From the NCBI GenBank assembly GCA_000004695.1, contig CM000154.2, positions 3,360,001-3,424,000 of the forward strand: DNA of 64,000 nucleotides. Direction: 5' to 3'. The first letter of the stretch is position 1, and each line of letters opens with the position of its first letter. Origin of the DNA: Dictyostelium discoideum. Lineage: Eukaryota. The notes beneath the pieces were generated by a model. That model did not search any database. It had not been told where the DNA came from and was given only the letters and a program-made list of their open reading frames with translations. This document shows positions 1 through 59,880 of the stretch, in pieces. The position numbers were made by a program, and so were the translations under genes.

Positions 1-1664
1 GCATCACCTGCATGTCTATATTCTCTTCTAATCTTACTAGTTGGTGATTGACAACGATATTGATGTGGTACATATCGAAGTTGTATAAAACTAACTACCA
101 TCAATGCCAAGGCATATGATCCAATTCCACCAGTATATGTTTCATTTAAATTATTTTGATGTAAAAAGAATTTTATTATTAAAAGTAATGTTCTCATTGA
201 TTTATATTGCTGAAAAAAAATAAAATAAAATAAAATAAAAAAATATATTAGTATTATATTTTAAAAAAAAAACTAAATAATTTTTAAAATTATAAAAACT
301 TACTTTTAATAAACCTTTAACAACAGCAGTATTTTCAATACCATTTGGAGTATCAAAACAAATATCAATATTGTAGTGGGAATGAGAACTTGTCATTTTA
401 ATGATTGGAACTTTAGCACCGAAAATATTCCGTACATTTATGAAAGAGTCTTGATGATTTCTAATTATTATATCAAAGAGGTCTCTAATTGGATTTTGAT
501 TGTATTTATTTACACTTTCAGCATTGTTAATGCCAGAGATTTGAATATCAATATCACTGGAAGGAATGAATAGATTTGAAGAAAAGGAACCAAATACCAC
601 TACATTTGCTTTTGGCCAATTTGATTTAACTATAGCATCCAAATCTCTTATTATCTTTTGTCGTATTCTTGACTCCAACTCACTTGGTTCCAACCATTGT
701 GAAAACAATTCAATCTCTCTATTAAATGATAAACTTGATAAATCCTTACTGGTATAATGTCCTTCTAACCATAATGGAATATGAATTGGTTTTTCATTTC
801 TCTTATGGTGATTACCATGATTACCATGATATTTATTCTTTGAAAAATTAAATGTTGAATTATTATATGAAAATGGTTGACTATTGTACTGGTTATTGTT
901 ATTATTGTTATTATTATTGTTATTATTATTATTATTATTGTTATTATTATTATTATGGTTATTGGTGTTATTGTTATTATTTGAAAGCGTTTGTTTTTCT
1001 ACTGATGATTTTGAATTATCAAAAAGTGGTAAAAAGTTTTCTTGTGAAATATTATAAATTGGTTGTGGTTGTGGCTGTGGTTGTGTAGTAGTTGATGGTT
1101 GTGATGTTTGAATTGATTGAGGTTGTTGTGTGGTAGTTGGCAATTGGGTTGATGGTAGAGATGGTGATTGTGTTTGTGTTTGTGATGCAGATGATGAAGA
1201 AGATGATGAAGATGATGATGAAGATGATGATGTTTTCTTTGGTGATGGAGGTTGTGTCATTGAAGACTCTTTTTTATCATCTTCACTATCGTGAATCATT
1301 GAAAATTCTTTGTTAGAGTGGTGGTCATCAGTTTGGTTAATCTTTTCTTTTATCTTGTCAGTTGGTATTATATTTGGCTTTTGATATTTCTTTGGATAAG
1401 ATGGTGATTTTGAAAAAGAAGATGGTGAACTATTATTATTATTATTACTATTACTATTGTTATTGTTGTTATTGTTATTATTTTGTGTTATTGCTATGGA
1501 TGGTGATGGTGGAGATGATTTTGGTGATGGGGAATTCTCTGGAGATGAATTGGTTGGTGAAGATCTTTTAGATTTATTCTTTTTCTTTCTTCCATGATCT
1601 TTATCCTTATTTGATTCACGATTACTATCACGATCTTTTTCACGTCTATTATTATTATTATTAC

Positions 1665-13541: not shown

Positions 13542-16475
13542 TTATTTTATTTTTGTTTCTTTTGTGTCATATAAAGTTAAAATAAGATTCATAATATCAA
13601 GTCTTTTTTTAAGTGTTGCCCTTTCTAAAATTGAATTCTTGTGTAAAAATTTTATATTTTCTAATACATAAATTACATTTGAAATATTTGAAAACCAATG
13701 TGATTTGAACAACAATTTTATAAAATGTGAGGGTACAGAATCTTTGTTTGTTGTATTTTTTAAATATCTTTCCATTGATATTAAAGCTAATTTATCTTCA
13801 TTAATTTTAAATAAATAATCTATATTATTTTTGAAAAAATCACGAGGTTTTGATAAAATTACCAATTTTTTTAATAATTGAGATGTTGATAATTTTTCAA
13901 TTACATCAAGTGGAAATTGTCCAAAATCAAAATTTATACCACAATTATATTTATTAACCATTGAAAAAGAGGTTGTTTTTTTTGGTAAATAAAGTGAAGT
14001 TAAATAATTTGATAATTTAAAATTTTTTATGTTGAAATAATAAATGATATGATAAAATCCAATTATCAATTGTATTTTATTTGATTTACATATTTCCAAG
14101 AATAAATTAATTTGATCAAAATTTATATTTTTACATTTTACTAATTCATTAAATAAAATTTGAAAAACAATAAAGTTTGAAGATTCTTGAATGTTTATTT
14201 TTTTAATTATTTCATTTAAAACTTGAATTATTAAATTTGGATTTTCAAAATTAAAATTTATATTTATTTCACCACTTTTAAATTCAAAAAGATAGTTTGG
14301 TTCAGTTTCATATTTAATGCATAATCTTGAATTTGATGAGAGTTGATTTAAAATGAATAAAATTGATTCATATTGTTTTGATTTAATTAAATTAGTTATA
14401 ACCAATTCTAATGATTCATTTGGAAATGAATTGAAATCAATTAATTTAAAAGATGGACAATTTTCAATTAATTCTTTAAAAGAAAATGAATCGAATAATG
14501 ATTCGAAAAAAATACAAGTTAATTTTGGATTAATTTTAATGGTTGGAAATTGTAATTGATTTAAATTATTTAAAATATTTTCAACTTGAGTAATGTTGGT
14601 TAATTTTTTAAAATTAAAATTTGTATGAAATTGACAAAAAATAGGTGAATTAATATCTTGAATACCAATTATTTCTATAAATTGTTTAATTTTTTCAATA
14701 TCTAAATTATTTAATGAACCAATATATAATTTTTTACATATTACTGCTTTTTCTGCATTTGGGTAATTTATTAAACATCTTTTAATTGCTTCCATTGATT
14801 CTAATGAAAGTGATAAAACTGAATAATAATTATTTATTGCTTTTAATGTTGAAGTTGATATTGATTCTTGATCACTTGAAACATTAATAAAAAATTTTTT
14901 TTCAAAGAATTTTAAATCATCAACTTGTTGTTCTGTGTAAATTTCAAAATAAAATTCTAATGCTTTAAAGTAATTTTCTCTTTTTAAATACATTACACCT
15001 GGAATTCTTTCACTGACTTTTTGAATGATTTTAACAGTTGTTGATGGACATTTCACAGTGAAATCGTTTAATTTTTCAATTATAAATGGTAAATGAGAAT
15101 CTGGGAAAACATCTAATAATTCATTAATGATTTCAAATGGGTATTGATATGAAAAAATTAATTCACTAACTGGTTTCCAACTTGAAAACCCAATGTTTAA
15201 ATGATTATCATTTTCAAAGTAAATCTTAAAAAACTGTACTATTCTACCCTTTATTTCTTCAATTTTTGAAAGATTGCACATTACATAATGGTGTTTAGGA
15301 AATTTAAAAGAATTTTCAATTAAACAATTTAAACCATTGATTGAAAATGATGAAAATGTATATTCTGCAATAGTTGATAAATCTGTAGTTGTTTCCTTAC
15401 TAATTCTATCATCAAATTCATCAAAATAAGCTTTATAAAATATATTTTTATCATATTCTTTTGCAATTTTATATTTAATAAATTTAATTTTTTCAAATTC
15501 TATATTCTCTTTATATTTTAAACCTTCTTTTTCAACCATCTCTTCAATTAAATCATTCACTTGTTTTGTTGAAATTTTTTTATTATTATTATTATAATAA
15601 TGATTTATTTTTAAAAGGAATAAACAATCTTGATATGAAAATTGAGTGTAATTATTCAATATATAATAAATTGGTATTGTGCTTTTAACTTCTATAAATC
15701 CACTTTTAAAACATTTAGTTCTAAATTCATCACTTCCTTTATAGGTTAAAGTGAATAAACCATAACCAAGCTTTTCTTTATAATTTAATTCATTTGGTTT
15801 AATGAAAACATCTAAACAATTATCAAAAATATATGATAATAATTCCCATTCATTTTTAACAATTAATCTATTAAATACTTTAATAATATCAATTTTATTA
15901 TTATTTTTATTATTTTTATTATTATTTAATTTATTTCTTAATTCTTTATATAGTACATCAAGCATGGATATGGTGTTTATATGCTTATAGAATCCATTTT
16001 GAATTGAATCCAATGTTATTGGTAATTTCATTCCAGTTTCTTCATCAATATAATTAATGAAATATTTTAATGCAAGTTCATTTTCATTCTCTATTGATTG
16101 ATTTATTGGGTCAATGATTGAATTGATTTCTTCTTTTTTAAATTTATATAATAATTTAATTGTATCTAAATCTTCATTACAATTTTCAAAGAAACTTGAT
16201 AATCCTTTTTTATCAATTCTTATATATTGATTACTAATTAATTTATCTTTTAATATTGTCCATAATTTATTTTTTGAAATTAAGGCTAATGTCATATTTG
16301 AAAATTTAACTCTATTCCCAACATAATACTTTTTCATATCATCATACTCTATAACTTGTTCACTCATAACTTTAAATATTAAATTTCTAATTACAACATT
16401 TTTAAAAACTTTCCAAAATAATATTTCATTATTATCATTATTATTATCATTATCATTATTATTATTATTATTCAT
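13542..16475 (-). CDS. Large (977 aa) hypothetical protein, upstream member of the tandem paralogue pair; its stop lies only 133 bp from the start of 10229..13408.
   Basis: Same conserved N-terminus and shared internal blocks (ENCPSFK, YPNA.K). The middle of the protein has diverged. Confidence 0.6.
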   Translation of the reverse strand: MNNNNNNDNDNNNDNNEILFWKVFKNVVIRNLIFKVMSEQVIEYDDMKKYYVGNRVKFSNMTLALISKNKLWTILKDKLISNQYIRIDKKGLSSFFENCNEDLDTIKLLYKFKKEEINSIIDPINQSIENENELALKYFINYIDEETGMKLPITLDSIQNGFYKHINTISMLDVLYKELRNKLNNNKNNKNNNKIDIIKVFNRLIVKNEWELLSYIFDNCLDVFIKPNELNYKEKLGYGLFTLTYKGSDEFRTKCFKSGFIEVKSTIPIYYILNNYTQFSYQDCLFLLKINHYYNNNNKKISTKQVNDLIEEMVEKEGLKYKENIEFEKIKFIKYKIAKEYDKNIFYKAYFDEFDDRISKETTTDLSTIAEYTFSSFSINGLNCLIENSFKFPKHHYVMCNLSKIEEIKGRIVQFFKIYFENDNHLNIGFSSWKPVSELIFSYQYPFEIINELLDVFPDSHLPFIIEKLNDFTVKCPSTTVKIIQKVSERIPGVMYLKRENYFKALEFYFEIYTEQQVDDLKFFEKKFFINVSSDQESISTSTLKAINNYYSVLSLSLESMEAIKRCLINYPNAEKAVICKKLYIGSLNNLDIEKIKQFIEIIGIQDINSPIFCQFHTNFNFKKLTNITQVENILNNLNQLQFPTIKINPKLTCIFFESLFDSFSFKELIENCPSFKLIDFNSFPNESLELVITNLIKSKQYESILFILNQLSSNSRLCIKYETEPNYLFEFKSGEININFNFENPNLIIQVLNEIIKKINIQESSNFIVFQILFNELVKCKNINFDQINLFLEICKSNKIQLIIGFYHIIYYFNIKNFKLSNYLTSLYLPKKTTSFSMVNKYNCGINFDFGQFPLDVIEKLSTSQLLKKLVILSKPRDFFKNNIDYLFKINEDKLALISMERYLKNTTNKDSVPSHFIKLLFKSHWFSNISNVIYVLENIKFLHKNSILERATLKKRLDIMNLILTLYDTKETKIK

Positions 16476-19594: not shown

Positions 19595-22500
19595 ATGAAA
19601 TTATTATTATTGGCGCTTATTTTAGTGCTCAGTAATATTAATTTAATAAGTGGTAATGGTTTAGTTTGGCCACATCCAAGATTACCATGTAGCCCATATG
19701 ACGAAAGGGGTTGTATAAATACACAAAAATGTAGTAGTACTGATTGTGATTCATTTAAACGTAGAATGTAAATATTAAATTTATTTTTTTATTTTAATTT
19801 TTTATATTTCCTAAAAAAAAAAACAATTTGTTTATTAATTTTTTTAAAAAATAATTATTTTTAGATATTTTGATGTTGCTTATAATACAGCATTTACAAT
19901 TTATCAACATACAATTTTTAAATACTATTCTGCAAATTATTATAAAGTTGAGTTAATAGTTGGAGGTAAAGTTTATTTTATTCATAAATTTGGTCAATTT
20001 AGAGGTGATGATTGTGAATTTGATGAAATTATTCCAGCTTTTTATAAGAAAGTTCAATTTTTAGATTTATCAACACCAATTAAAGCAACAATTCAATTTT
20101 CATTTGATTTTTCATCACATCCAAAACATGCAAACATTTATTATTCCTGTATAGATGTTTGGTTATTCGACTCTGCATATTACAATTATTGCCCAACTAA
20201 TAGTGGTGGTGGAAGTGGTAATAGTGGTGGTAGTTGGTCAAGTGGTGGAAGTGGTAATAGTGGTGGTGGTTGGTCAAGTGGTGGAAGTGGTAATAGTGGT
20301 GGTAGTTGGTCAAGTGGTAATAGTGGTGGTCATTCTACAGGTGATTGCCCAACAAGTAGCGGAGGTTGGACATCTGGTAGTCACTCAAGTGGATCATGGT
20401 CATCAGGTGGTGGTAGTGGTTCATCATCAGGAGGTCAATCAAGTGGATCTTGGTCTTCAGGAGGTGGTTCATCTTCAGGAGGTCATTCAAGTGGATCTTG
20501 GTCTTCAGGAGGTGGTTCATCTGCAGGAGGTGGTTCATCTTCAGGAAGTCATTCAAGTGGATCTTGGTCAAGTGGTGGCTCATCTTCAGGAGGTCAATCA
20601 AGTGGATCTTGGTCTTCAGGAGGTGGTTCATCTTCGGGAGGTCAATCAAGTGGATCTTGGTCTTCAGGAGGTGGTTCATCTTCAGGAAGTCATTCAAGTG
20701 GATCTTGGTCAAGTGGTGGCTCATCTTCAGGAAGTCATTCAAGTGGATCTTGGTCATCAGGTGGTAGCTCATCATCAAGTGGAAACAGCGGATGGATGAC
20801 TGCTTCTGGGGGTAATACTGGTGGAAATACTGGTGGAAATACTGGTGGAAATACCGGTGGCCAATCAAGTGGAAACAGCGGATGGATGACTGCTTCTGGT
20901 GGTAATACTGGTGGTAATACTGGTGGAAATACCGGTGGTCAATCAAGTGGAAACAGCGGATGGATGACTGCTTCTGGTGGTAATACTGGTGGAAATACTG
21001 GTGGAAATACCGGTGGCCAATCAAGTGGAAGCTCTTCATCAGGTGGCAATAGTGGTTGGTTAACATCTTCTGGCAGTAATAGTGGAAGTTCTTCGTCAGG
21101 TAGTAATAGTGGTTGGTTAACATCTTCTGGTAATAGTGTAAGTTCTTCATCAGGTGGTAATAGTGGCTGGTTAACATCTTCTGGTGGTAATAGCGGAGGC
21201 AATAGTGGAAGTTCTTCATCAGGTGGCAATAGTGGTTGGTTAACATCTTCAGGTGGTAACAGTGGTGGTTCCTCATCTTCAGGCAGCAATAGTGGTGCCT
21301 CATCTTCAGGTGACAATACTGGAGGTAATAGCGGTTGGTTGACATCATCTGGTGGTAATACTGGAGGTAATAGTGGTGCTGCAACCGGAGGAAATAGTGG
21401 AGGTAACAGTGGTGCCTCATCTTCAGGAGGTAATAGTGGCGGTGCTTCATCATCTGGTGGCAATACTGGAGGTAATAGCGGTTGGTTGACATCATCTGGT
21501 GGTAATACTGGAGGTAATAGTGGTGCTGCAACCGGAGGAAATAGTGGAGGTAACAGTGGTGCCTCATCTTCAGGAGGTAATAGTGGTTGGTTGACCGGCG
21601 GTGTTACTGGTGGCAATAGTGGAGGTGCTACTGGAGGTAATAGCGGTGGTGCTACTGGAGGTAATAGTGGAGGTGCTACTGGAGGAAATAGCGGTGGTGC
21701 TACTGGAGGCAATAGCGGCGGTGCTTCATCATCTGGTGGCAATAGTGGAGGTGCTACAGGAGGTAATAGCGGTGGTGCTACTGGAGGCAATAGCGGTGGT
21801 GCTACTGGAGGTAATAGCGGTGGTGCTACTGGAGGCAATAGTGGAGGTGCTACAGGTGGTAACAGTGGAGGTGCTACTGGAGGAAATAGCGGCGGTGCTT
21901 CATCATCTGGTGGCAATACTGGAGGTAATAGCGGCGGTGCTACTGGAGGTAATAGCGGCGGTGCTACTGGAGGCAATAGTGGAGGTGCTACAGGTGGTAA
22001 CAGTGGAGGTGCTACTGGAGGAAATAGTGGAGGTAACAGTGGTGCCTCATCTTCAGGAGGTAATAGCGGTTGGTTAACAGGTGGTGCTACTGGTGGTAAT
22101 AGTGGAGGTGCTACTGGAGGAAATAGTGGCGCTGCAACCGGAGGAAATAGTGGTGCTACTGGTGGTAATAGTGGAGGAAATAGTGGCGCTGCAACCGGAG
22201 GAAATATTGGAGGTGCTTCAAGTGGTTCCAGTTCTTCAGGAGGTAATAGCGGTTGGTTAACAGGAGGCGCTACTGGAGGTAATAGTGGCGGTGCTACTGG
22301 AGGTAATAGTGGCGGTGCTACTGGAGGTAATAGTGGCGGTGCTACTGGAGGTAATAGTGGAGGTGCTACTGGAGGTAATAGTGGAGGTGCTACTGGTGGT
22401 AATAGTGGTGCTGCAACTGGAGCAAATAGTGGTGCTGCAACTGGAGCAAATAGTGGCGCTGCAACTGGAGCAAATAGTGGTGCTGCAACTGGTGCAAATA

Positions 22501-23123
22501 GTGGAAACAATGCCGCTGTAACTGGTGCTGCAAATGGAAATAATGGCGCTGCAGCTGGAGCAAATAGTGGTGCCGCAACTGCTGCAAATAGTGGTGCCGC
22601 AACTGCTGCAAATAGTGGTGCCGCAACTGCTGCAAATAGAGGAAACAATGCCGCTGCAACTGGTGCTGCAAATGGAAATAATGGCGCTGCAGCTGGAGCA
22701 AATAGTGGTGCCGCAACTGCTGCAAATAGTGGTGCTGCAAATAGTGGTGCTGCAACTGCTGCAAATAGTGGTGCTGCAGCTGGAGCAAATAGTGGTGCTG
22801 CAACTGCTGCAAATAGTGGCGCTGCAACTGCTGCAAGTGGTGGAAATGGTGCAAGTGGTGCTGCAAACCCTGGTTCAATAGTAACTCCAAATGATCAAAA
22901 TGTTTCTCCATTATCGAACTCTGATGCTGCAGCAACCGCAGCATCAACTACAGGCAGAAACCCAAGAAATCCAACAAGTAGAGCTCCAACGGTCACACCA
23001 ACGCCAACCTCTTCAGCTGAAGAACCAGCTGCTGGTGGCGAAGATTCAAGTGCAATCTCCAAATATAGTATTCAATCATTTGGTATCTTTGTTTTATCAA
23101 TGATAATATATTTAGTAATTTAA
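19595..23123 (+). CDS. Secreted, probably GPI-anchored mucin-like glycoprotein. It has an N-terminal Cys-containing globular domain of about 190 aa followed by ~900 aa of Gly/Ser/Asn/Thr/Ala low-complexity repeats. 2 exons: 19595..19767 and 19865..23123, intron 19768..19864.
   Basis: Signal peptide MKLLLLALILVLSNINLISG. The donor is at|GTAAAT (phase 2) and the TTTTAG acceptor joins to frame 0, which stays open through ORF 20796..23123 (the listed M is internal). The C-terminus GEDSSAISKYSIQSFGIFVLSMIIYLVI is a hydrophobic GPI-type tail. The body consists of 24-nt GGNSGGAT units punctuated by GGNSGWLT. Confidence 0.65.
20200..22860 (+). repeat. Coding minisatellite: degenerate tandem 24-nt (8-aa GGNSGGAT / SSGGHSSGSW) units inside the mucin-like gene.
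   Basis: Visible periodicity of ggtggtaatagtggaggtgctact and related units. It generates spurious ORFs in the other five frames (20155..20799, 20335..21567, 20939..22648, 21601..22077, 22390..22947 and others). Confidence 0.85.
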
Positions 23124-23268: not shown

Positions 23269-25061
23269 TCACCATTTAACTTTATTTAATAAATCTTGAA
23301 CAAATTGATCGCAATCACCTAAATAAACATAATCAAATTCGTGAGGTTGAGCAACCAACTCACGATTAATTAATATTTGAGGTATTTGTTTATCAACTAT
23401 ATCGGGTAATAAAGACACAGGTTGGACTTGTAATGATGAACCCATAACAATTAGTAAATCAATATCTTTTACATCTTTGAGTACACATTGATCGAATCGG
23501 TCAGGTAGATTTTCACCAAAGAAAACAATATCGGGTTTCATGAATGATTGACCATCATTACATTGTTGACACAAGGGTATTTCCATTTTCATGATGGTAT
23601 CACGAATGGTGGTACCATCGACAGTTAATTTACAAGTGATACAAGTTGCAGTTGAGAAACTACCATGACAATTGACCAATTTCTCTCTATCAATACCTGC
23701 AACATGTTCCAATGTATCGATGTTTTGAGTGTAATTTCTAAGTAGTTTACCTTTTTCATCCAAAAGTTTTATAAAGGAATGAGTTGGTGATGGTTTATGA
23801 TTACCAGGGAAGATCTCTTTTGCAAATTCAAAGAAAGGTAAAGGATTTGCACGTAAGTAATGAATATCAAACAATGATTCTGGTCTTGGTAAATTATATT
23901 TCTTTTCAATAGTTTCGTAAACGCCACCTTTTGATCTAAAATCTGGAATACCACATGAAACTGATACACCAGCACCAGTTATAATTACAATGTTTTTACT
24001 CGATTCAAATAATTGACAAACCTTTTCAAATGTTGATAAATCCAATGTTGCTATCTTTTTTCTATAGGGTCTTGCCAATGTATTATACTTTAAATAATTT
24101 AAAAATAAATTTACTGCCACTTTTTTCCTTGTTAAAAATGCCGTTATAATTTCCCATGCATCATCATCTTTCTCTAATTCCAATTTAAATCCAATATCTT
24201 TGGTAAACTCAATTGGATCAATCCCCAATGATTTCTTTTCTTGAATATGTTTATATATAAAACTACGTGCAACCAATTCAATATTTTCTTCTTCTTCTTC
24301 TCCTTCTTCTTCTTTTGAATTTCCAACATTATTTCCAATTCTTTGAATTTCATCATCAACTTCATCTTTATTATTATTTAAAATATCCAATAATATTGTT
24401 TCATTTATTTGTGTTTTTGTTGTTGTTGTTGTTGTTGTTGATGTTGATGTTGTTGTGGTTGATGAAGTGTTTGTTATTGAAGTGCTGGTTTCTGTATTTA
24501 CTAATTTTTTTTGAATTTTCTTAATTTCATTAATATTATCTAAATGATCTTCATCATCTAATAATTCATCTTCATTTTCATACCCATACTCATATTCACT
24601 ACTTTCATCATCTTCATAGTCATCACTTATTTGTTCTTCATCGGAATATCCTTCACCAACAAATTCATACTTTCTTCCTTTTTTATCCAATTTATTAATT
24701 AATTTAGTATCAATTTCAACATCTAAATCTTCATCTTCATCTACTTCTTGTAATTGTTCTAAACTATTTATAGATTTTCTAAAAATAAAAAAAATAAAAA
24801 AAAGTGGAAATAAAAAAAAATAAAAAAAAAAGGTTAGATTATTTTTTTTATTTTTTTATTTTTTTATTTTTTTTATTTTTTCATTTTCACTTTTTTTTTT
24901 TTTATTTTATTTTTTTTTTTTTTCACGAGGGATGATTTTTACAATTTTTTTAAGGGTGTATTATCAGAAGGGATTTCTTTATTTATTTTATTATTATTAT
25001 TTTTATTTTGATTATTTTGAATTTCGTTTAGTTCATTATTTTCTAAAGATCTCTTATTCAT
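23269..25061 (-). CDS. NAD-dependent protein deacetylase of the sirtuin (Sir2) family, class I/SIRT1-like, with an acidic and Thr-rich N-terminal extension. 2 exons: 24943..25061 and 23269..24778, intron 24779..24942. Predicted 542 aa.
   Basis: Catalytic core GAGVSVSCGIPDFRS...YTQNIDTLE...CHGSF...C.TC...CQQC (Zn-ribbon) ...VFFGE...LIVMGSSLQV. The listed M at 24690 is a TTG. The true ATG is at 25061 (MNKRSLENNELNEIQ...). The donor is tt|GTAAAA (phase 2) and the TTTTTAG acceptor restores the frame. The 542-aa size matches the Dictyostelium Sir2 paralogue of that length (possibly sir2D, unverified). Confidence 0.8.
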
Positions 25062-29152: not shown

Positions 29153-30022
29153 ATGAATCCATTAATTAAAACTGGACTTGAGTCCTTATTAAAAATTAAA
29201 ATTGACGAAAATCAAAATTCAAATTTAATTTCTTATAAAGATTATTCATCAATTATTCATGGTGTTAATCATGAACACAATCAAATAAATTTAAAAAATG
29301 AAGATAATCTCAATTCAAAAATGCTCATTGGTCCAGATAATATTACATTTTTCATAAGACATCTATCAGGAAGAACATATGAAATGAAATCAAATTTTAA
29401 ATGTTTAATTTCAGAAATTAAAAATTTATTTTTTAAAAATTTTGAAAATTCAATAAAACCAAGTGAAATGGTGTTAAATTATAACGGTCATAAATTAGAA
29501 AATAATAAACAACTTTGTGATTATAATATTAGAGATCATTCAACTTTAACTTTATATTTTGAAAATTCAACATATTCAATTGATAAAAATACTTTTGATC
29601 CCAGCTTCGATTATGATTTCACTTCAGTGGTCGATAAAGCAAACGCATTTGTTAGAGGTGGTCATTATTATCAAAGACCATGTGGATCATTTAGATTTGC
29701 ACTAAAAGTTTTGGGAAGATTTAATGAACCAATGGAAGAATGGTTAGGTCAAACAGGGAAGGAAGGAGGTTCGGAATGGGCAGTGTCATATCATAGTTCA
29801 TTAAATGAAGAAAATTGTCTTACAACACCAAGCTTTGAAGTGGCTAAAAAAAATGCCTTTACCTTCACATACAATGGTTTAAATTATTATCTACTATTCC
29901 AAAACAGAATTAATCCATCAACTTTTAAAAGAGAAGTAATTAAAAATGATGAGTATTGGAAATCACCAAACTCATCATCACAACATATAAGACCATACTC
30001 AATTTGTATTGGTAGAGTCTAA
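29153..30022 (+). CDS. Ubiquitin-like domain-containing protein (289 aa) with a C-terminal domain of unknown function.
   Basis: Residues ~60-140 (ITFFIRHLSGRTYEMKSNFKCLISEIKNLFFKNF...LNYNGHKLENNKQLCDYNIRDHSTLTLYF) have a ubiquitin beta-grasp pattern. The downstream block FVRGGHYYQRPCGSFRFALKV...EWAVSYHSS is uncharacterised. Confidence 0.45.
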   Translation: MNPLIKTGLESLLKIKIDENQNSNLISYKDYSSIIHGVNHEHNQINLKNEDNLNSKMLIGPDNITFFIRHLSGRTYEMKSNFKCLISEIKNLFFKNFENSIKPSEMVLNYNGHKLENNKQLCDYNIRDHSTLTLYFENSTYSIDKNTFDPSFDYDFTSVVDKANAFVRGGHYYQRPCGSFRFALKVLGRFNEPMEEWLGQTGKEGGSEWAVSYHSSLNEENCLTTPSFEVAKKNAFTFTYNGLNYYLLFQNRINPSTFKREVIKNDEYWKSPNSSSQHIRPYSICIGRV

Positions 30023-30165: not shown

Positions 30166-33100
30166 TTAATCTTTCATTGAATTCATTGAAATTGACATTC
30201 TTTTCATTGATTTCTTCTCTTTTAATTTTCTATAATAAAAAATTGAAGATGCTGCTACTAATGTTGAACCTCCAACTACTGATACTACAACTATTACAGG
30301 TAATTTCCATTTATTTGAATCACAATTTGTATCTTCATCATCATCTTCTGGTCTTAATAATTGACCAAATGAAGGATCAATTATAGTTTTGCTTTTAAAA
30401 TGAGGTGATATAACACCTGTTCTTAATGTGAATTTTGAATTATCAATATCATCTGTTGAAGCACCAATGAAATTATAAATTTTACTATTATTCTGTTTAT
30501 CAATTTGTATTAATTCAGTTTGAGTAATTCTATCATCAATGATTGCACGTGATGCAAATTTACCAGTGAGAGAAGTTGAAAATGTTTGAATTTGATATTG
30601 ATTTTTTAAATATTTTGATTCTGTATCTATTGATTCACAATTATAAAATTCGGATGAATCAGTTTTTGATTTAAAAATTGTAACTAAATAATTTAATTCA
30701 CTTGAAAATTTCCAACCTAAAATAGTAGCTTGATATTTAATTGAATTTTCTGGCATGTATAATGTTTCACCAGCAAATTCGATTTCACCTTGATCAGAGA
30801 AATAATGAATTATCAATTCAAAAATTGTAGAATTATCACCTTGTTTATTAAAACTACCACTATAGAAATTTGATGAGTTTGATAAACCTGTTCTATTTGT
30901 CCATTCAATTTCTGATAATGATAAAAATCTAACTGGATTATCAGTAATATCCATTTCAACTAAATGAGTGATTGCAATTGTATAATTAATTTTTGAACCT
31001 GGGAATGTAGTTGAACCATTTTCATCAATAATTGGTGGTTCAGGTTGTGGTGGGTATTTTTCACTATCGATTGAACAATCTTGACCTCTCCAACCTTGAT
31101 AACATATACATTTTGGTAATTTCTTATTACAATCACCATTTCCTGAACAATTGTTTAATAGCTCACAATCATATAATGTTGAATAAACTAAACAATCATT
31201 CTCTCCACTGAGATCTGCGGAAATAACTTTTACATTTAAACCTTTTCTTTCGCTTGGTAATGGTATTGTTGATTGGTATTTACATTTTATAGTTGTTTGA
31301 TCGACGATTGAAACATTTTCACATTCTTGATCTTCAATGAAAACACTAGTATAATCAATTTTGAAATTTAAAACTGAAATTAAAAGATCAATTGGTTCAT
31401 TTAAATAAACTTGTGATAATACTTTTAATACAATTGGAGATTCATACTCTGATTGTAAAGAGTTTGATATGAGAGATGATTTTGAAATTGCAATAATTTC
31501 AAATTTTCCATAACCTGGTTGAATATCACATTCATATTCTGTACCCACAATCAAGGCTAAACAATTCAATAAGAATCCAATTGGAGAATTAATTGATGGA
31601 GTTTTAAAAGTATATTGAAATTGTAATGCTACAGCGTTATTGTTTGAATCTTCTTCAAATAAATAATTACCACTAATTGTTATTTTACTTGTACTATTAA
31701 ATGAAGATGCTATTGGTTTAATACTGAATAGAATTGGATAAATATCTAATAATAAAGAATTTGATTTCTGTGAATCAACAATAACATAGATATCACCATT
31801 TCTTGATTTACTTGTTAATAAATTAAATTCAATTCTATTACTATCGATTGATTTTATAGTTGGTTCATAACTTCCAAAAATTAGAGTTGTCAAAGTTTTA
31901 CTTAAATTTCTTCCAATGATTACAACTAAATCTTCAACTTGTGTAACTGATAATAACTCTGGTTTAAAGAATGAATAGATTACTTTATTTGATTTTAATT
32001 TATTTTGATTTTCAATTGCAATTGTATGATTTAACCCAAATCCACCGAAAATATGTAAAACAATTTCTTCTGGACTATTGATTGTATAATCTTGATCTTC
32101 TATCAATTCTATATTATTATCCCTTGATACTATTATTGGTTGTTCAAAATAACGACCGGTAATTGTCACATCACTAGTTTGTACTGTATCTAATAATTGA
32201 TTTGAAATTGATGAAATCCAAGGTTTTAATGCAACAGGAATACTTGGATAAATTTTATCACCTTGAGTAATTGTTAGAGTACCACTAATAACATTCAATG
32301 GTAAATTTGAACATCTAATTAATTCTTTACTACCTAAACAATAGGATGATATATTAACACTATCTAAAATAATTGATAAGGTTGTTGCATCTGGTAAATC
32401 TTTACCATTAATTAAAAGATCAGCTTTATCTTGATTAGTGTATAGGTCAGAATTAAAGTATTCTATTTGATATTGTGGTGTAATTGATGAAATACCGTCA
32501 ACAATAATCTCTAAATTATAAGTGTCTGGTGATAATGGTGGTGATAAACAACTAATTTTTTCATGATCTTCAATTATAGCTACATTTTTACAACTGACAT
32601 TAACATTATCTGATCCTCCAGTAATTAAAACTTGAATTAAGCTACTATCAATTCCAAAGTTTATACCAGAGATTGATAAAACTCCACCCACCTGAGCGAT
32701 ATTATTCGAATAAATTATTGATGGCTCTGCATATTTATAAATAGCGGTTGTACTTTGATTTGAAACTTTTAATGCAACAGGTATTGTACCTGAACCAACT
32801 GGTAATGTACAAGTATAACTCTTGTATGGAACTAAAACAGTGAGCAAACTACATGACTCGAATGTCAATAATGTATTTGAAAGTGTATTTGAAAAACTAC
32901 TACCTGTTATTGTGACAATTCCACCAGTAGTTGGTACTCTATTCATAGTAATTATTGTTGGTTCATTATATTTTACAAATTGAGAATTTGCAGTTGTATT
33001 TAATGTATCCACTCTAACAACAATTTCATATGGACCATCAAAACCAGCAGCAATTTGAACATCCAATTCACCATTGATATAATCTCTTTCAAAATCCACT

Positions 33101-34872
33101 GATTTTCCATTGAAAAATACTGTAATTTTACTAAAAATCGTACCATAGTTATCTATACCAATATCAACTTTACCACCAATTGTATCAACTGTGTTTACTT
33201 TATTTGGAGTTGTAAAAGATGGAGGTGTACCACCATATTCTGTCAATACACCAGTATAAGAAGATAGTGTCATATTTGTTAACTCTAATGTATCTAAATA
33301 AATTACAAATCTTGTATTCTCAGTCCAAGTTGCTTTTACAGCATCACCTCCAATAATTGATTTATACTTTAAAATACATGGTTTACCTTGATTAGGACCT
33401 GTGATATAAACAAAATTTCCATTACCCACATATTTTGCATTTTGCCATAATATCCATCTTGCATTACCATTTTGAACTGGTAATGTATTATTTGCAAACT
33501 GTATCAATGTATCATCATAAAGTGATCCCATATGACCAATTTGACCATCAATTCTTAAATTTGATGCATAATCAATCATTGAAGTTTCAAATGTTGCCCA
33601 AGCTAAAAAACCACTATAATAATAACCATTATAAACTATTTTTAAAAAATAATTAATTATTAATAAATAATATAAAAAAAAACTTTTTTTTTTTTTTTTT
33701 TTACTTACAAATTGCAGCTTTAAATGAAATAAAAGTATTTGTTGAAACTGTAATTGTAATTGGTAAAAATTTATTACCAGTTAAACTTTCTGATAAAACA
33801 CAAGTAAAAACTTCATGTGCTTGTGTGATAATAATATTATTACATGAAACTCCTGGTGCACCTAATGTTACTGTGATTTCTGAAGCAATAGTTCCAAAAT
33901 TTGCACCTGTAATACTTGCAGTACTACCTTTTGAAAATACTGGATAAACACCACCAATCATTGGTAGTTCATAATTCCAATAAATTGGAAAATTATTCTT
34001 TTTATTTTTACTATCTTTAATTGCAACTGTGAATTTGCCTTGACCTGGTGGAATTGCACATTCAACACTACCAGTATCGATTTGTTTTATAGTTGTACAT
34101 GAAAAAGTTTTTGAAGAATCTGCTCTATTTGTGAAAATTATTGATAATTGACTATCGATTGTGAATGAATTTAAATGTTTGATAATTACAGTTGAACCAG
34201 TGGTTGGTGATGGAGGAATATGTGGTTCTTCATAACCACCAAATTCACAAACATATTTATCTAATAATGCCAATGGACCATTGTTATTAATGTAAGGAAC
34301 TGTCACAGAACCAGAGGTATGCAACCAATGTTCATCTTTAATTAAATTTGGTTCTAAACTTCCAAATATACAAAAACTATAACATTTATCAAAATAAAGA
34401 TTATACATAAAATCATCTTCTTCTGGTGAACCTTTTGAATATTTCCAAACACCTGTTTTTTCTGCATCACTGCCTGATATCCACATACCAGATGTTGTAA
34501 AATTATTTGTTTTACCCCAATTCCATTCTTCTTCACTTGTATATGTTACTAAATAGCTAATTATTTAAAATTAAATTTTAATAATTTTATTAATTTTTTA
34601 AAATAATAAAAAAAAAAATACATGGAAAAAAAAAAAAAAAAAAGAAATAAATTAATTATTTACCCTTTAGTTCCATTATAAGAAAAACTGTTACAATAAT
34701 CGGTAGCATTTGGTCCAGTTATTTGTACGCCATAGGCAAGTTTATTATCAAAAACTTGGTAATAATGTTGGTTTTGAGGGTTTTTGGTGGGGTTTATTGG
34801 TTGTGGTGGTGTCAAACAAAATACACAACCAATAAAAATAAAAAAAAAAATTAAATGAAAAATATTTTTCAT
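30166..34872 (-). CDS. Large type I transmembrane receptor of the Dictyostelium Tgr/Tiger-like architecture: signal peptide, C-type lectin-like domain, multiple IPT/TIG (Ig-like) domains, EGF-like module, TM helix and a short cytoplasmic tail. 3 exons: 34664..34872, 33709..34556 and 30166..33635 (introns 34557..34663 and 33636..33708).
   Basis: Exon 1 signal peptide MKNIFHLIFFFIFIGCVFC, ending at gg|GTAAAT. Exon 2 carries lectin-like WNWGKTNNFTTSGMWISGSDAEKTGVWKYSKGSPEEDDF...C.F and ends at t|GTAAGT. Exon 3 carries repeated IPT/TIG-type blocks (ITG.NFG, SC.NV...EDHEKISC, TGRYF), EGF-like CSGNGDCNKKLPKCICYQGWRGQDCS, a TM segment LPVIVVVSVVGGSTLVAASSIFYY and a basic tail RKLKEKKSMKR. All splice phases are consistent. 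Exon 1 coordinates follow the ORF track; my own base indexing there is 1 nt off, see noticed_but_rejected. Confidence 0.7.
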
Positions 34873-41304: not shown

Positions 41305-48014
<6,710 letters not shown>

Positions 48015-54159: not shown

Positions 54160-55228
54160 TATTATTTTTATTGACGAAATTTGATTAAGTAAAATTTTAA
54201 TATAAAAATTCTATCTACAATTATACTATTTATAATTTACCACTAATAAAAAAAATATTAATTTGATAAAAAAAAAAAAAAATAAAAAAAAAAATAAAAA
54301 AAAATATAAAAAAATAAATAAAAAAAAATAAAAAAAAATAAAAATAATAATTGGCACCACACAAAAAAATTTTTGGTTTTGTTTTTAATTTTTTTTTTAT
54401 TAATTGAAATTTCATTTAATAAATTCTATTTTTATCAATTATTATTACTTTTTTTTTTTTTTTTTTTTTTTCATAATATAGATTTATAAAAAATAAATCA
54501 AAGTATTGAAATTAAATTAATTATTTCTTTGATGATTTTATTTTTATTTTATTTTATTTATTTTTTTATTTTTTTTTTTTTTAATTTTCCATTGTGATAC
54601 TCAAATAATAAAAAAAAAATATTGGTGATTGATGAATTAAAAATATAATTTTAATCATTGGTAATGGTATTATAAACTTCTTTTGCACATAGAAATTAAA
54701 TTTTTTTTTTTTTTTTTTTATGCAGTTAAATTTTATTATTTCCAAAAAAAAAATAAAATCACTGCCTTCCTAAAAAAAAAAAAAAAATATAAAAAAAAAT
54801 TAAAAAATAATAAAATTCGATGAATCTTTTTTTATGAGATTTACAGGGCATGCAAAGATATCCCAAAATATACACTCAAAAATTCGAAAAAAAAAAAATT
54901 ATTTATTTTTATTTTTTTTTATTTTTTTTTTATTTTTGATACACACAACTTAATTTTTATATGGTAGCATAAAAATTTATTTTTTTTTATTTTTAATTTT
55001 TGTTTTTTTTTTTTTAATAATTTTTTTTTTTTAAAATTTTTATTTCCCAATTAAATTTTTTTTTTTCTTTATTATTTTTAAGTCTTTCATCACATTATTA
55101 TTATCTCTCATTATTTTCTAAAATTATTTTTTGTTTTCCTAAAATTTTAAAAAAAAAAAAAAGAAAAAAACCAATGGGTATGTTATTATCATCACTCTTT
55201 TACTTTACACACACAACAAAACCTATAT

Positions 55229-55265
<37 letters not shown>

Positions 55266-55377
55266 CCACACGGAGCCTTTTTATAAATTTTTTTAAATAA
55301 ATTTATTTCAATAAAAATAAAAATTTAATAAAAATAAATTTTTTCCTTTTTTTTAAAAAAAAAAAAAAATTAAAAAA

Positions 55378-55425
<48 letters not shown>

Positions 55426-55489
55426 TAATATTAAAAAAAAAAAAAAAATTATTTTATTAAATAAAGAATTTTTATCAACATCCCAGTCA

Positions 55490-56665
55490 TTGCAAATTAA
55501 CTTTGATTCTCAGCAATCAGAACAAATCCAAGTCCCAATTGGATTTGATTCAAGCCAACCTCCACAAGAGTTTGAATTTGAAACAACTCCATTGAACCAA
55601 TTACCTTTTTTGAAACAAATTGATATTGCAGCTTCTCTTTCCTTTATTCCAGCCTCAATTGAAAACCTCACAACAGAAAATACCATTACTGTTTTTCCAG
55701 TTCTTGTTGGCCAAGGTGCTTTTTCTCAACAAGATTCACTTCTTCAATTCCCAGTAAGTCTTCAAAACATCAACATCAACAATAACAACAACAGCAACTT
55801 CCAACTTGGTTTAGTACCATCTTCACCACAATCTTCTATCTCATCACCATCAACCATTGAAAGTAATTATTTATCCAATCCATCATCTCCATGTCAAAGC
55901 ACACCAATTTTGGAATCATCCACTCCCTTTTCTCAAAAATTGATGTCAAACGAACAACAACAACAACAACAACCACAAAATTTCTCTTTCCCACAAAAAC
56001 AACAGCAAGCTGTTGACCTCAATGAATTCTTTGGTTTAAATTCAGTTGGGGGTGGTGGTCATTTCAAAGCATGCTTTTCACCAGATAACAGTTTCAATTT
56101 GTACAATGATCTTTCACCAGAGGCTAAATCTTGTTTCAAAATTTTCGCTAAAAAGTGTAAACCAACCACCGAACATGAAGTCTTTAACAAGGTTATGAAT
56201 TTGTTGAACAATTTAACTCTTGAAGAAATTGATTTGATTATCAAGTCCGTTTCACGTATTGAAAAGTATGATACGCTCATTGCAAAGGTCTTTGCCACCG
56301 AACTTGATGTAGCTAACTTCCCAAGTATCAATGCCAAGCTTTTGCTCCAAAATTTATTGGTCGAAATTATTGACCAAGACAGAAAATTGGTCTACCACCT
56401 CTTCCAACTAGATACTGATCATATTCACTCACTCAAAAATAAATGTTCAATCTTATCAATCTCTACCCCAGCCAGTGATTCCCTTAATTTCTCTGCTTTA
56501 CTTCAAGAAGATAGTAATAACAATAACAATAACAATAACAATAACAATAACAATAACAATAACAATAACAATAACAATAACAATAACAATAACAATAACA
56601 ATAACAATAACAATAATAATAATAATAATAACAATAATAATAACAATAATAATTATAATAATAAT

Positions 56666-56746
<81 letters not shown>

Positions 56747-57197
56747 TGTAACAACAGCTTGGTTAATGATAGCAACACTAATATTATCAACCACACACAT
56801 AACCTAAATTATAACCAAAATCAAAACCAAAACCTCAACAACAACTATAATTACGACTACAACTTCACCAATGATACCAATAATAACGTCTACCACCAAA
56901 ATAATACTTCTCCTGCTAATAATTCTCCTTATGTCACACCAGTTTTAAAAGATAATGAATTACATTCTCAACTTTTACCTCAAATTGCTCACCAACAACC
57001 AGTTGCAGTTCTTGCTAACTATCAACATAACCAACAACAACAATCACCACAACAAATACAACAACAATTATATAATCCACATTTACAAATACTATCACAA
57101 CAAACAAATTCAAACCCACATAATACTGAAAACATTGAAGTTCCAAAGATTAAACTTCAACCAAATTTCCAATCAACAACCACCACCACAATTACTC

Positions 57198-57241
<44 letters not shown>

Positions 57242-58369
57242 AATACTCCATTAATCTCCCAACTTATTCCAGAAAGTATTAAACCAAAGGCTTCAAATAA
57301 ATTGGCAAATAATTCAAATGGAAAGAAAGTTGGATCAAGTAAAAAGGTCTCTAAATCTGTTTTTCCAAAAGGTATCATTACACCACAATACTTTTCAATA
57401 CTTAAAGATAGATTTGGTTTCACTATGGAGTCATTGGAAAAAGCATCAAATCCAAATGGTGCAAACTATATCCACAGTTTAAATGGTTCGCTTGCTCTTG
57501 TAAACACTTGTCTCGTGCCAATCTCTAGTGAAGTTAGTACCGGTAGAGATAGTAAAAATGGTGTTGTCATCACCGTAAAAAACTATGGTGACTATACCAC
57601 CAAACTCACATTGGAATATGAATTGGTGACCTCCAACAATGAAGTCAATGATGATAAATTCTCTTTCAAAAAGAAAAATCTTTTAATGGTTGAACCAGGT
57701 ATCTTTTATTTCCAATACTCTATGAATAGAATTGACAAGAATGAAAAAGAGGTCTATATTAGATTCAATCTCATCTGCGAAGGTAAAGTCATTGATAGCA
57801 TTCAATCACCTCAAATCCGTTTCAGAAATACTCCAAGTGAATTTGATCAACCAAATAACGTTCAATTAGAGACTCTCATCGCTGATCAATTTAAAACCTA
57901 TAGTGATGACCACAGTGTTCACGTTAAATTCGTTGCTATTGCTAATCTCTTTAAGAAAGGTATCATTCCAAAAGCATCAAAAGATTCATCCTCCTCTCCA
58001 ACTGCTTCTTCTGCCGCTCCTGGTGATAGTAGTAGTGATGGTGAAGGTGATGAACAATCATCAACTTCAACTAAAAAGATGAAGAAAGGTAAACCACTCG
58101 AAGTCACTTTAAAACATAGCAGTGGTTTCACATTGGTCATCCCACAACACATTTCCAAAGCTAAACCAGAAGATATTTGGAGATTCCCAAAGAATTTAAT
58201 CTCTCAAACTAATATTCCAATTAAAAAATCTGAAGGTGATATCATTCATTTCCCTTACTCTTATGTTGTTGAATTCTCTGCTTTAGTTCCAAGAGGAAAT
58301 TATACCATTACTTTTGGTTATGAATTTGTCAATAAAAAAGCAAATCCAATCCATAATTTTGTTATTTAA
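55490..58369 (+). CDS. Q/N-rich putative nuclear regulatory protein, paralogue of 60675..63368 (possibly the CudA-like family of STAT-like DNA-binding proteins). The 5' end is incomplete and probably includes an upstream exon near 55174.
   Basis: The listed start at 55490 is a TTG. The frame is open upstream to a poly-A tract and there is no in-frame ATG for ~150 codons. An ATG at 55174 encodes MGMLLSS..., matching the MGMISS... start of the paralogue. The C-terminal ~330 aa (PKGIITPQYFSILKDRFGF...NGANYIHS...PEDIWRFPKNLI...PRGNYTITFGYEFVN) are conserved between the two genes. Naming as CudA-like is from memory of that family and unverified. Confidence 0.5.
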
Positions 58370-59880
58370 GATAATAAAAAAAAAAAAAAAAAAAATAGAA
58401 AAAAAGAGAATAATAAAAAAAAAAAAAAAAATAGAAAAAGAGAATAATAATAAAAAAAAAAAAAAAAATACCATCATTTTAATAAGATATATAAAAAAAA
58501 AAAACCAATAAAAATAAATAAAACCAGTTTAATAAGATAAATAAAAAAAAAAAAAACAATAAAAAAAAACAATTAAAAAATTAACTGTTTTTTTTTTTTT
58601 TAAGATTTTTTTTTTTTCGAAAATTAAAGTGAAAAAATGGATTTCAATAAACTAATAAAAAATGTGTTTATTGCGCGAACTAAATTTTTAAAAAGAATTT
58701 TTTTTTTAATACTCATTGGAACTTTTCGAGACCTTACTTAATTTTATATGTAGGCAACTATGAATAAAATATCGGTTTTGGTTCTAATAATAAACTTTTT
58801 TCAAAAAAAATATTAACTTGAACTTAATTCAATAATAAGTTTTTCATTTCAAATCTTTCCAAAATCAAAAAAAAAGATAATTGTTTCAGGTTTTGAATAT
58901 ATTTTATTATTTTTATTTTTTCATTTATTGTTTTCCATTTAAATAAAATATTTGTTTAATAATTTTTTTATTTTTAATAATTCAATTCTCTAAAAAAAAA
59001 AAAAGTTAAATAAAAACGGGAAAAAAAAACACTTTATAACCAAAACCAAATTTTTTGTTTTTTTTTTTTTCTTAAAAAGTAAATGGATCGTGCCAAATTA
59101 ATTTCAGGATAAAAATAAAAAAAAAAAATAAAATAAAAATAAAAAAAAAATAAAAATAAAAAAAAAAAAATAAAAAAAGTTAAAATTTTCCATGTTTTCA
59201 TATTTTATATAAAATAAAAATAAAAAAAATGGAAAGTGATCAATACCGCCTTTACACCTCCATGATGATTTTGTTTTTTCAAAAACCAAAAGGCAAAACA
59301 AAATTTTTAATTGGATTTGAATAAATTTTATTTCAAAAAAAAATTTGTTAATGTTGCATAAAGTGAAAAAAAGGGGTTTGAGTGAATTGTAAAAAAGTGA
59401 AATCCATGACGAAATTTTTTTTTTTTTAAATTTTATTTTTTTTTTAATTCAAAAAAATTGAATTACACATTTTTTTTTTTTGATATTTTTCGGTGTGTCT
59501 ATCCAAAAATGAACAAGTGGTCATATTAAAATAAGTTAAATCAAAATAATACCCCTCCTCCATATAAATGGTCCCAATATTTTTAAAAATTTTTTTTTGT
59601 AATTCACAAAAATAAATTTAATTAGGCCAGGCAGCCTTTGTTTAAATGTTAAAATAAAATTATGCCGCAATTTTAAAATTTTTTTTAAAAAAAATAGCCA
59701 CACAAAAATTTTAATTACAGACATCATACATATAGTACTTTTTTTTTTTTTTTTATTTTTTTTTATTTTATGTAGTTTTTTTTTTCAGGGCACTTTTTTT
59801 TTTTATTTTTTTTTTATTCCATTATTTTTTTTTTATTCCACCGTTTCATTTTATGTTTGTTTCTTTACATTTTTTAGAAA

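Follow-up and report, generated by a model that had tools for sequence, protein, structure and literature searches.

A spliced Dictyostelium discoideum gene with a polymorphic coding minisatellite, probably encoding a GPI-anchored head-on-a-stalk protein

This report concerns a repeat-containing gene located on the forward strand of a 64,000-nucleotide stretch of the Dictyostelium discoideum genome (GenBank assembly GCA_000004695.1, contig CM000154.2, positions 3,360,001 to 3,424,000), referred to below as the window. Our analysis revealed that the region (window positions 19595-23123) is a real protein-coding gene. Its product is probably a secreted-pathway, most likely glycosylphosphatidylinositol (GPI)-anchored surface glycoprotein of head-on-a-stalk design, in which a small head is followed by a long body of tandem repeats, a short Pro/Thr/Ser linker and a C-terminal anchoring signal. 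The gene has already been annotated as encoding a hypothetical protein, and a literature search for it found nothing specific. It may be the gene behind the Swiss-Prot entry "Uncharacterized transmembrane protein DDB_G0289901", a tentative identification; this name surfaced only in "-like" labels of insect and crustacean genes.

Gene structure and the repeat body

The gene extends over 3529 nt, a length not divisible by three, from an ATG at 19595 to a stop codon at 23121-23123. An earlier interpretation, generated by a model from the letters of the window (the sequence-only reading), had correctly placed both ends of this coding gene; it had also assumed a single continuous open reading frame (ORF), and this part did not hold. 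Unspliced reading from the ATG is interrupted by an in-frame TAA (19769-19771) after codon 58, and a 97-nt intron had been overlooked. The intron was selected from all GT..AG pairs, among which it is the only AT-rich one with a canonical donor that gives a single open frame. The spliced product comprises 1143 aa, and the annotation of an independent long-read assembly of the laboratory strain (L001; GCA_054883475.1) has an identical span and a product of the same length. In five other genomes the donor position is conserved, with introns of between 70 and 343 nt. The intron of the D. citrinum orthologue (L005, ~15000-15330) is 343 nt long, compared with 70-135 nt elsewhere, on account of an (AAT)n run of ~75 units.

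The window, which is DNA of the AX4 type, has a background G+C content of 12-30%, and the gene is its only long GC-rich stretch (44-50% GC, with a GC skew of +0.28 to +0.41). In the annotated frame, the G+C content of the three codon positions of the repeat body (GC1/GC2/GC3) is 0.50/0.85/0.14, which corresponds to the bias of Dictyostelium towards codons ending in A or T. This frame contains no stops over 20200-22900, and the five other frames carry 11-119. The body frame is open in all seven genomes of the D. discoideum clade, only one frame is stop-free (six genomes), and the other frames contain 5-152 stops in every genome examined. Since only the annotated sense frame is open, the long ORFs of 214-569 aa found in other frames of the repeat region (Table 1) are by-products of the repeat, and antisense genes were rejected. 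Antisense ORFs had been dismissed as artefacts by the sequence-only reading as well, correctly, although its premise that all six frames are open was wrong. The 3529-nt gene of L001 is identical to that of the window, although the flanking DNA differs (7 mismatches and 11 gaps over the 21.8 kb of window positions 13237-35078, none of them within the repeat gene), which indicates that the array is correctly assembled in the window.

The N-terminal signal is the strongest hydropathy peak of the protein. It is kept in all orthologues, and on inspection has the features of a cleavable signal peptide. The head does contain Cys residues, as had been noticed, but it is shorter than the ~190 aa initially estimated: 170 aa with the signal peptide and 150 aa in the mature form. 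The body, of 899 aa, agrees with the ~900 repeat codons counted earlier. Its composition is 36% G, 26% S, 12% A, 11% N, 8% T, 3% W and ~0% P, with Ser and Thr together reaching 34% (residues 196-1060 contain 307 G, 224 S, 109 A, 98 N, 71 T and 22 W). It is essentially uncharged, almost free of Pro, and devoid of N-glycosylation sequons; the single N-x-S/T sequon of the whole protein is at N1070, in the linker. AlphaFold modelling of the whole of exon 2 gave a mean pLDDT of 25.8 and left the body devoid of secondary structure, and the head modelled without an alignment reached a pLDDT of 50.

The hydrophobic C-terminus of GPI type proposed by the sequence-only reading was found on inspection. 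A candidate omega site, S1119 (S1119-S1120-A1121), provides small residues at the omega, +1 and +2 positions, 9-10 positions before the hydrophobic stretch. A polar spacer of a length within the usual 5-10 residues follows, and then the terminal run FGIFVLSMIIYLVI, whose mean Kyte-Doolittle hydropathy over the last 14 residues is 2.8 and beyond which the protein ends. All seven clade genomes have kept this signal, and the SSAIS sequence followed by a hydrophobic end recurs in Tieghemostelium lacteum. The term "mucin-like", also applied to the protein earlier, suits the Pro/Thr linker of ~40 aa in front of the GPI signal and not the Gly-dominated body. A classical mucin was rejected, as the repeats are not dominated by Pro, Thr and Ser (PTS); only aa 1070-1118 are rich in these residues.

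The structure of the body was analysed with Tandem Repeats Finder (TRF), which detected many overlapping arrays and confirmed a strong tandem signal (scores up to 679). The body is a coding minisatellite, as had been proposed, but it is not a uniform 2.3-kb (GGNSGGAT)n array of 24-nt units. It is a composite mosaic of ~2.7 kb in which no fewer than five tandem arrays are nested. Their periods are 36, 48, 78, 54-57, 147, 24/48/72 and 138 nt, and the 24-nt period is confined to ~21596-22843. The units are arranged head-to-tail and in frame, they fall within the 10-150 nt typical of minisatellites, and their lengths are multiples of three. The best arrays show 82-97% matches, and the longest perfect internal repeats measure 83-188 nt. 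Among the recurring motifs are GGNSGGAT (20 copies), SGSW (8), ANSGAAT (10) and GNSGW[LM]T (11, plus one variant). Trp is the only recurring bulky residue of the body; it occurs as SGSW in the N-proximal zone and as GNSGW(L/M)T in the middle zone, and is missing from the final 214 aa. The Trp motifs are mostly 10-61 aa apart, with a single gap of 161 aa, and not spaced every 50-100 aa as had been stated for GGNSGWLT.

The repeat region also holds an eighth Cys, C219, which lies ~50 aa beyond the head, within the motif HSTGDCPTSSGGWTSG (nt 20331-20378). This residue and the following PTSSGGWTSG are kept in all seven clade genomes. C219 may form a putative disulfide with the head, e.g. with C167, which would close a loop of the first SW units.

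Table 1. Features of the repeat gene and of its surrounding reading frames (window coordinates; TRF, Tandem Repeats Finder)
Feature	Residues (aa)	Position (nt)	Strand	Description
Exon 1		19595..19767	+	Encodes the signal peptide (MKLLLLALILVLSNINLISG) and the first, Cys-rich part of the head (C32, C40, C46, C51); kept in all orthologues
Signal peptide	1-20		+	MK, 10-residue Leu/Ile/Val core, then SNINLISG with predicted cleavage before NG; by inspection
Intron		19768..19864	+	97 nt, GTAAAT...TTTTTAG, phase 2 after codon 57; sole AT-rich GT-AG intron restoring the frame
Exon 2		19865..23123	+	Rest of head, repeat body, linker, GPI signal, stop codon
Head	21-170		+	Seven Cys
Head portion in exon 2	58-170	19865..20201	+	Beta-rich; C108, C154, C167; conserved across the clade
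Repeat body	171-1069		+	Gly/Ser/Ala/Asn/Thr-rich
Body, zone 1	171-367	20202..20792	+	Ser/Gly units of 36 and 48 nt ending in SGSW/GGSW, Trp every 10-22 aa; contains HSTGDCPTSSGGWTSG
Body, zone 2	368-855	20793..22256	+	GNSGW(M/L)T-bearing units: 78 nt (3 copies), 54-57 and 147 nt, GGNSGGAT 24-nt runs
Body, zone 3	856-1069	22257..22898	+	Trp-free; GGNSGGAT units, then Ala-rich ANSGAAT(G/A) units of 24 nt; 138-nt higher-order unit
36-nt and 48-nt units		20206-20777	+	Ser/Gly units ending in Trp; TRF
78-nt unit		20818-21030	+	2.7 copies, 96% identity; TRF
54-57-nt and 147-nt units		21024-21586	+	TRF
24/48/72-nt array		21596-22505	+	GGNSGGAT; TRF
24-nt array		22281-22843	+	ANSGAAT, with 138-nt higher-order unit; TRF
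Linker	1070-1118	22899..23045	+	Unique, Pro/Thr/Ser; NVSPLSNSD...TSRAPTVTPTPTSSAEEPAAGGED; homologous to the T. lacteum TPTPTPTP linker
Predicted GPI-attachment signal	1119-1143	23046..23120	+	SSA, spacer ISKYSIQS, 14-residue hydrophobic FGIFVLSMIIYLVI
Spurious antisense ORFs		20335-21567, 20939-22648, 22390-22947	-	Frames with stops in every genome examined
Spurious off-frame sense ORFs		20155-20799, 20450-20767, 21601-22077, 22525-22881	+	Frames with stops in every genome examined

Orthologues, length alleles and repeat turnover

The repeat gene converges on a gene encoding a Sir2D deacetylase (542 aa, PF02146; 23269-25061, minus strand), from which it is separated by a spacer of 145 nt. At 100% identity, the ORF at 23269-24690 (minus strand) matches a 542-aa Sir2-family deacetylase of D. 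discoideum in NCBI, and this is the published length-class of Sir2D, DDB_G0289967 (PMC6475656). The tail-to-tail arrangement with sir2D is conserved, which made it possible to locate orthologues by synteny, by retrieving the DNA flanking the Sir2D orthologues. A gene converging on sir2D, with a matching exon-intron plan, was identified in seven genomes of the D. discoideum clade (Nanopore and Illumina assemblies, PRJNA1300491). The encoded proteins comprise 1143 aa in the laboratory strain (L001), 989 and 1020 aa in two D. discoideum isolates (L002 and L008, respectively), 1193 aa in D. cf. discoideum (L003), 1088 aa in D. dimigraforme (L004), 1094 aa in D. citrinum (L005) and 933 aa in D. firmibasis (L006). 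At every clade locus, the reconstructed translation reproduced the annotated product length. No syntenic counterpart was found beside sir2D in D. purpureum, P. violaceum, H. album and C. fasciculata (only the sir2D locus was inspected), and no paralogue of the repeat gene was found within the window.

The comparison of these long-read assemblies substantiated the length polymorphism between strains that the sequence-only reading had anticipated. The three D. discoideum alleles differ in length by up to 154 aa, to be read with the caveat that the isolate with the 989-aa allele shows a fair degree of divergence from AX4 (head dS of 0.087), and their heads are identical at no fewer than 169 of 170 positions. 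The copy number of the minisatellite differs among the alleles: the GWMTAS unit is present in 3, 2 and 1 copies, and one allele contains a run of some ten GGNSGGNSGASSS units. In this set of assemblies, mating compatibility with AX2 has been found for the tropical isolates that carry the D. discoideum label (PMC12745789). Across the seven clade genomes, the length of the body ranges from 690 to 950 aa.

The head is 91-99% identical to that of AX4 across the clade, with dN/dS values of 0.02-0.16, and is under purifying selection; the neighbouring Sir2D is less conserved (83-96%). In the body, the order of the zones (SGSW, GWLT, Trp-free, linker) is identical in the seven genomes, and the composition is likewise kept. 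The dominant unit depends on the lineage: (i) GGNSGGAT in the discoideum complex, (ii) GGNSGGAS in D. dimigraforme, (iii) GGNSGAGS in D. citrinum and (iv) GNGASGAAT in D. firmibasis. From 42 to 58% of the 21-mers of a body recur within its own array, and only 0-8% are shared with species beyond the discoideum complex (8-29% for the head). Since units are repeated within arrays and little shared between species, the repeat units are homogenised within lineages, i.e. they undergo concerted evolution by unequal exchange or slippage. The perfect internal repeats mentioned above make a substrate for both processes available.

The only outgroup orthologue that we found is that of T. lacteum, a single-exon ORF of 254 aa (L010, 11761-12525) with a signal peptide and no intron, which also converges on sir2D, tail-to-tail, with a spacer of 146 nt. 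Its head shares 34% identity with that of D. discoideum over 170 aa (E 2e-21), including the PRLPC, FTIYQ and YYSC-DV-L motifs and four Cys residues. The head is followed by a Pro/Thr/Ser/Lys linker of ~55 aa containing TPTPTPTP, and then by ...ENPESSAIS and a hydrophobic end. The Gly/Ser/Asn body is absent. On the simplest reading of these sequences, the ancestor would have been a small head-linker-anchor protein, and the body would have arisen later, after YCPTN and ahead of the linker, on the branch leading to D. discoideum, D. citrinum, D. dimigraforme and D. firmibasis. Alternatively, the body may have been lost in T. lacteum, since this is a single outgroup orthologue.

Searches with the head and the surroundings of the gene

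A word-indexed protein search with the head produced no match, and that with the whole of exon 2 returned two matches only, each spanning 1-2% of the query. In a HMMER search of 1.84 billion representative proteins, for which a library-wide threshold of more than ~35 bits is needed, the sole match of the exon-2 part of the head was a bacterial repeat protein, rejected as spurious. A metagenome scan with a profile of the head gave no match. The protein and two of its orthologues (933 and 989 aa) are absent, by exact sequence, from a collection of 15 billion proteins, although they are annotated in the assemblies; negative protein searches therefore carry little weight for close relatives. Two further candidates were rejected. 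Sequence and profile matches of the head in PDB were chance matches to botulinum toxin (E >= 0.02). The similarity to CfaA_B_C (PF11912, Dictyostelium counting-factor-associated) had an E-value of 0.087 and 13.3 bits, compared with a cut-off of 28.6 bits; it included the signal peptide and was gone when the mature head alone was used.

In the window, a large gene encoding TIG/IPT and EGF-like domains (30166-34486, minus strand) lies ~7 kb from the repeat gene and corresponds to a single product of 1508 aa in L001. It resembles the Tgr ("tiger") family of surface proteins and adjoins a ubiquitin-like gene (29153-30022). Other locally GC-rich and strongly GC-skewed stretches of the window, at ~1000-2000, 42000-43000 and 55000-58400, lie inside long ORFs: 202-2460 (poly(A)-polymerase-like), 41653-45081 (Med24-like) and 55490-58369 (no Pfam match). 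These stretches are likely to be additional coding repeats of low complexity, and to one of them (44197-44811) tblastn weakly aligned the repeat body, owing to composition.

Interpretation and comparison with known systems

We favour the reading given at the outset, a GPI-anchored surface glycoprotein with its head on a stalk, as the probable one. The C-terminal peptide would be exchanged for a GPI anchor, and the linker would be O-glycosylated, as possibly would the Ser-rich units; O-glycosylation of PTVTPT-type linkers and of Ser-rich units is a known modification in Dictyostelium. The body would act as a long, flexible tether, keeping the head at a distance of tens of nanometres or more from the membrane, and unequal recombination or replication slippage between its perfect repeats would alter the length of this tether. 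The regularly spaced, conserved Trp motifs may give weak contacts, to carbohydrate or to one another, and the head would be the ligand-binding part.

Several observations weigh against this reading. The GPI and signal-peptide calls were made by inspection and not with a trained predictor, and the T. lacteum orthologue does without a body, so that the body could be a tolerated expansion and not an adaptive tether. The D. discoideum head has no significant match in Pfam, among PDB sequences or among the 1.84 billion representative proteins. The T. lacteum orthologue alone matched a Pfam profile, PF20238 (BIM1-like_dom; E 1.8e-4, residues 19-166 against profile positions 2-127 of 140), and did so below the gathering threshold (22.4 vs 27 bits); the heads of the D. 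discoideum clade gave no match to PF20238 in a Pfam scan. This family, X325/DUF6595, comprises fungal GPI-anchored, LPMO-like copper proteins and is defined by an N-terminal histidine brace, in which the first mature residue is a His that acts with a second His and an Asp (PMC10952591). The mature N-termini of our proteins, NGLVWPHPR in D. discoideum and (N)AGIQSPLPR in T. lacteum, lack the N-terminal His that defines the family, and no His is conserved in the alignment of the two heads, so the histidine brace is absent. Given the sub-threshold score and the missing brace, the link to BIM1-like proteins is a lead and not an assignment to the family. One possibility is that the head is related to the fungal GPI-anchored BIM1/X325 beta-sandwich but has no histidine brace.

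The body is central to two of the alternatives. Runaway repeat expansions are common in the repeat-prone genome of Dictyostelium, and the functional unit could consist of the head and the anchor, with the body as a near-neutral expansion tolerated as a linker. The bodiless T. lacteum orthologue, the fast turnover of both the sequence and the number of units, and the length variation within D. discoideum speak for this. On the other hand, a body has been kept in all seven genomes, free of stops, frameshifts and charged residues and with the same zone order and Trp motifs in each, across a clade whose divergence is said to be comparable to that between human and mouse (PMC12745789). We therefore regard near-neutrality as possible but doubtful. 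The notion of a pseudogene, of faulty assembly or of a minisatellite without coding function was suggested by the highly repetitive sequence, the long ORFs in several frames and the lack of a continuous ORF from 19595. It is refuted for practical purposes by the identical independent assembly, the frame that stays open in seven genomes despite differences in length, the GC3 value, the conserved position of the intron and the purifying selection on the head.

The remaining alternatives differ in how the protein is held at, or released from, the cell. It could be a type I single-pass membrane protein with a C-terminal transmembrane helix and no cytoplasmic tail, not GPI-anchored, and automatic annotators would call it transmembrane; it has indeed just two hydrophobic segments, one being the N-terminal signal and the other the final 14-19 residues. 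We consider this unlikely, because the strictly hydrophobic run is just 14 residues long, ends the protein and has no basic residues behind it, and because a triad of small residues (S-S-A) precedes it by 9-10 residues, in an SSAIS-plus-tail arrangement conserved out to T. lacteum. A short terminal hydrophobic run with a small-residue triad upstream is a textbook feature of GPI signals. A structural protein that is shed or built into the matrix (slime sheath, stalk tube or spore coat), with Trp motifs for cellulose binding and a GPI anchor serving only for transient delivery, is improbable to a similar degree. Aromatic residues spaced along a flexible, uncharged chain would fit stacking on polysaccharides, and a role in the matrix or spore coat had already been suggested by the sequence-only reading, next to possible roles in adhesion or as a spacer, but Pfam revealed no similarity to known cellulose-binding or spore-coat modules of Dictyostelium. 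A bolder version of the stalk idea, which we would put forward only as a speculation with low odds of being right, combines a head descended from X325/BIM1, deprived of its copper site and kept by dictyostelids as a GPI-anchored surface module, with an uncharged, Trp-punctuated Gly/Ser/Asn tether acquired in the clade. This tether would be an extracellular sticker-and-spacer polymer that self-associates or stacks on cellulose or other glycans, and its length would be a fast-evolving, isolate-specific parameter of cell-cell or cell-matrix contact in multicellular development.

The gene is a clean natural example of a coding minisatellite that can endow a surface protein with a large extra module: a head-linker-anchor protein of 254 aa in T. 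lacteum corresponds to proteins of 930-1190 aa in the other lineage, and between isolates of one species the length of the stalk varies by at least 154 residues, with a nearly constant head. Its interest lies in the contrast with T. lacteum, the conserved Trp-punctuated architecture and the documented series of alleles. Because long-read assemblies make the arrays reliably comparable, the locus could be used to test what tether length means for function, and also as a hypervariable Dictyostelium marker. It also carries two warnings for annotators, namely that a GC-rich repeat of this kind yields spurious ORFs of 200-570 aa on both strands, and that its composition can draw false "homologues" elsewhere.

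The known proteins closest in plan are PsA (prespore antigen SP29, pspA) and similar small GPI glycoproteins of Dictyostelium, in which a signal peptide is followed by a small globular head, a PTVT-type Pro/Thr spacer for O-glycosylation and a GPI signal. Compared at the level of domain layout, the protein studied here shares this plan, with APTVTPTPT in its spacer, and the T. lacteum orthologue has exactly the PsA plan; the proteins of the D. discoideum clade differ in the additional Gly/Ser/Asn/Ala/Thr body of 690-950 aa between the head and the spacer. With its N-terminal domain on a long, low-complexity stalk of tandem repeats, its terminal GPI signal and its strain-variable repeat number (989, 1020 and 1143 aa), the protein resembles the fungal adhesins Als, Flo and Epa, in which repeat number varies via recombination. 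However, their stalk is rich in Ser, Thr and Pro, whereas that of the amoebal protein is Gly-dominated, uncharged and almost Pro-free; there is no Pfam match to any adhesin domain, and amoebae have no cell wall for cross-linking. The BIM1/X325 proteins, which have a signal peptide, a beta-sandwich of ~140 aa, a Ser/Thr/Pro linker and a GPI anchor, are alike in overall plan, and the T. lacteum protein matches the profile almost end to end; the sub-threshold score, the unmatched D. discoideum head and the lack of an N-terminal or conserved His set the two apart.

Protist mucins and mucin-like GPI proteins with PTS domains have in common with this protein a long, repetitive and probably glycosylated extracellular region encoded by a polymorphic minisatellite, and its linker is PTS-rich; the body differs from theirs in having almost no Pro, with 36% Gly and 34% Ser+Thr. 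The flexible Gly/Ser-rich stretches with regular aromatic punctuation (Trp in this case) recall the sticker-and-spacer logic of plant glycine-rich proteins and of the "glycine loops" of loricrin and keratin. This is an analogy only, as those proteins are wall-associated or intracellular, not GPI-anchored, and unrelated in sequence. The protein is thus an unusually clear case of a familiar protein kind, and not a new kind.

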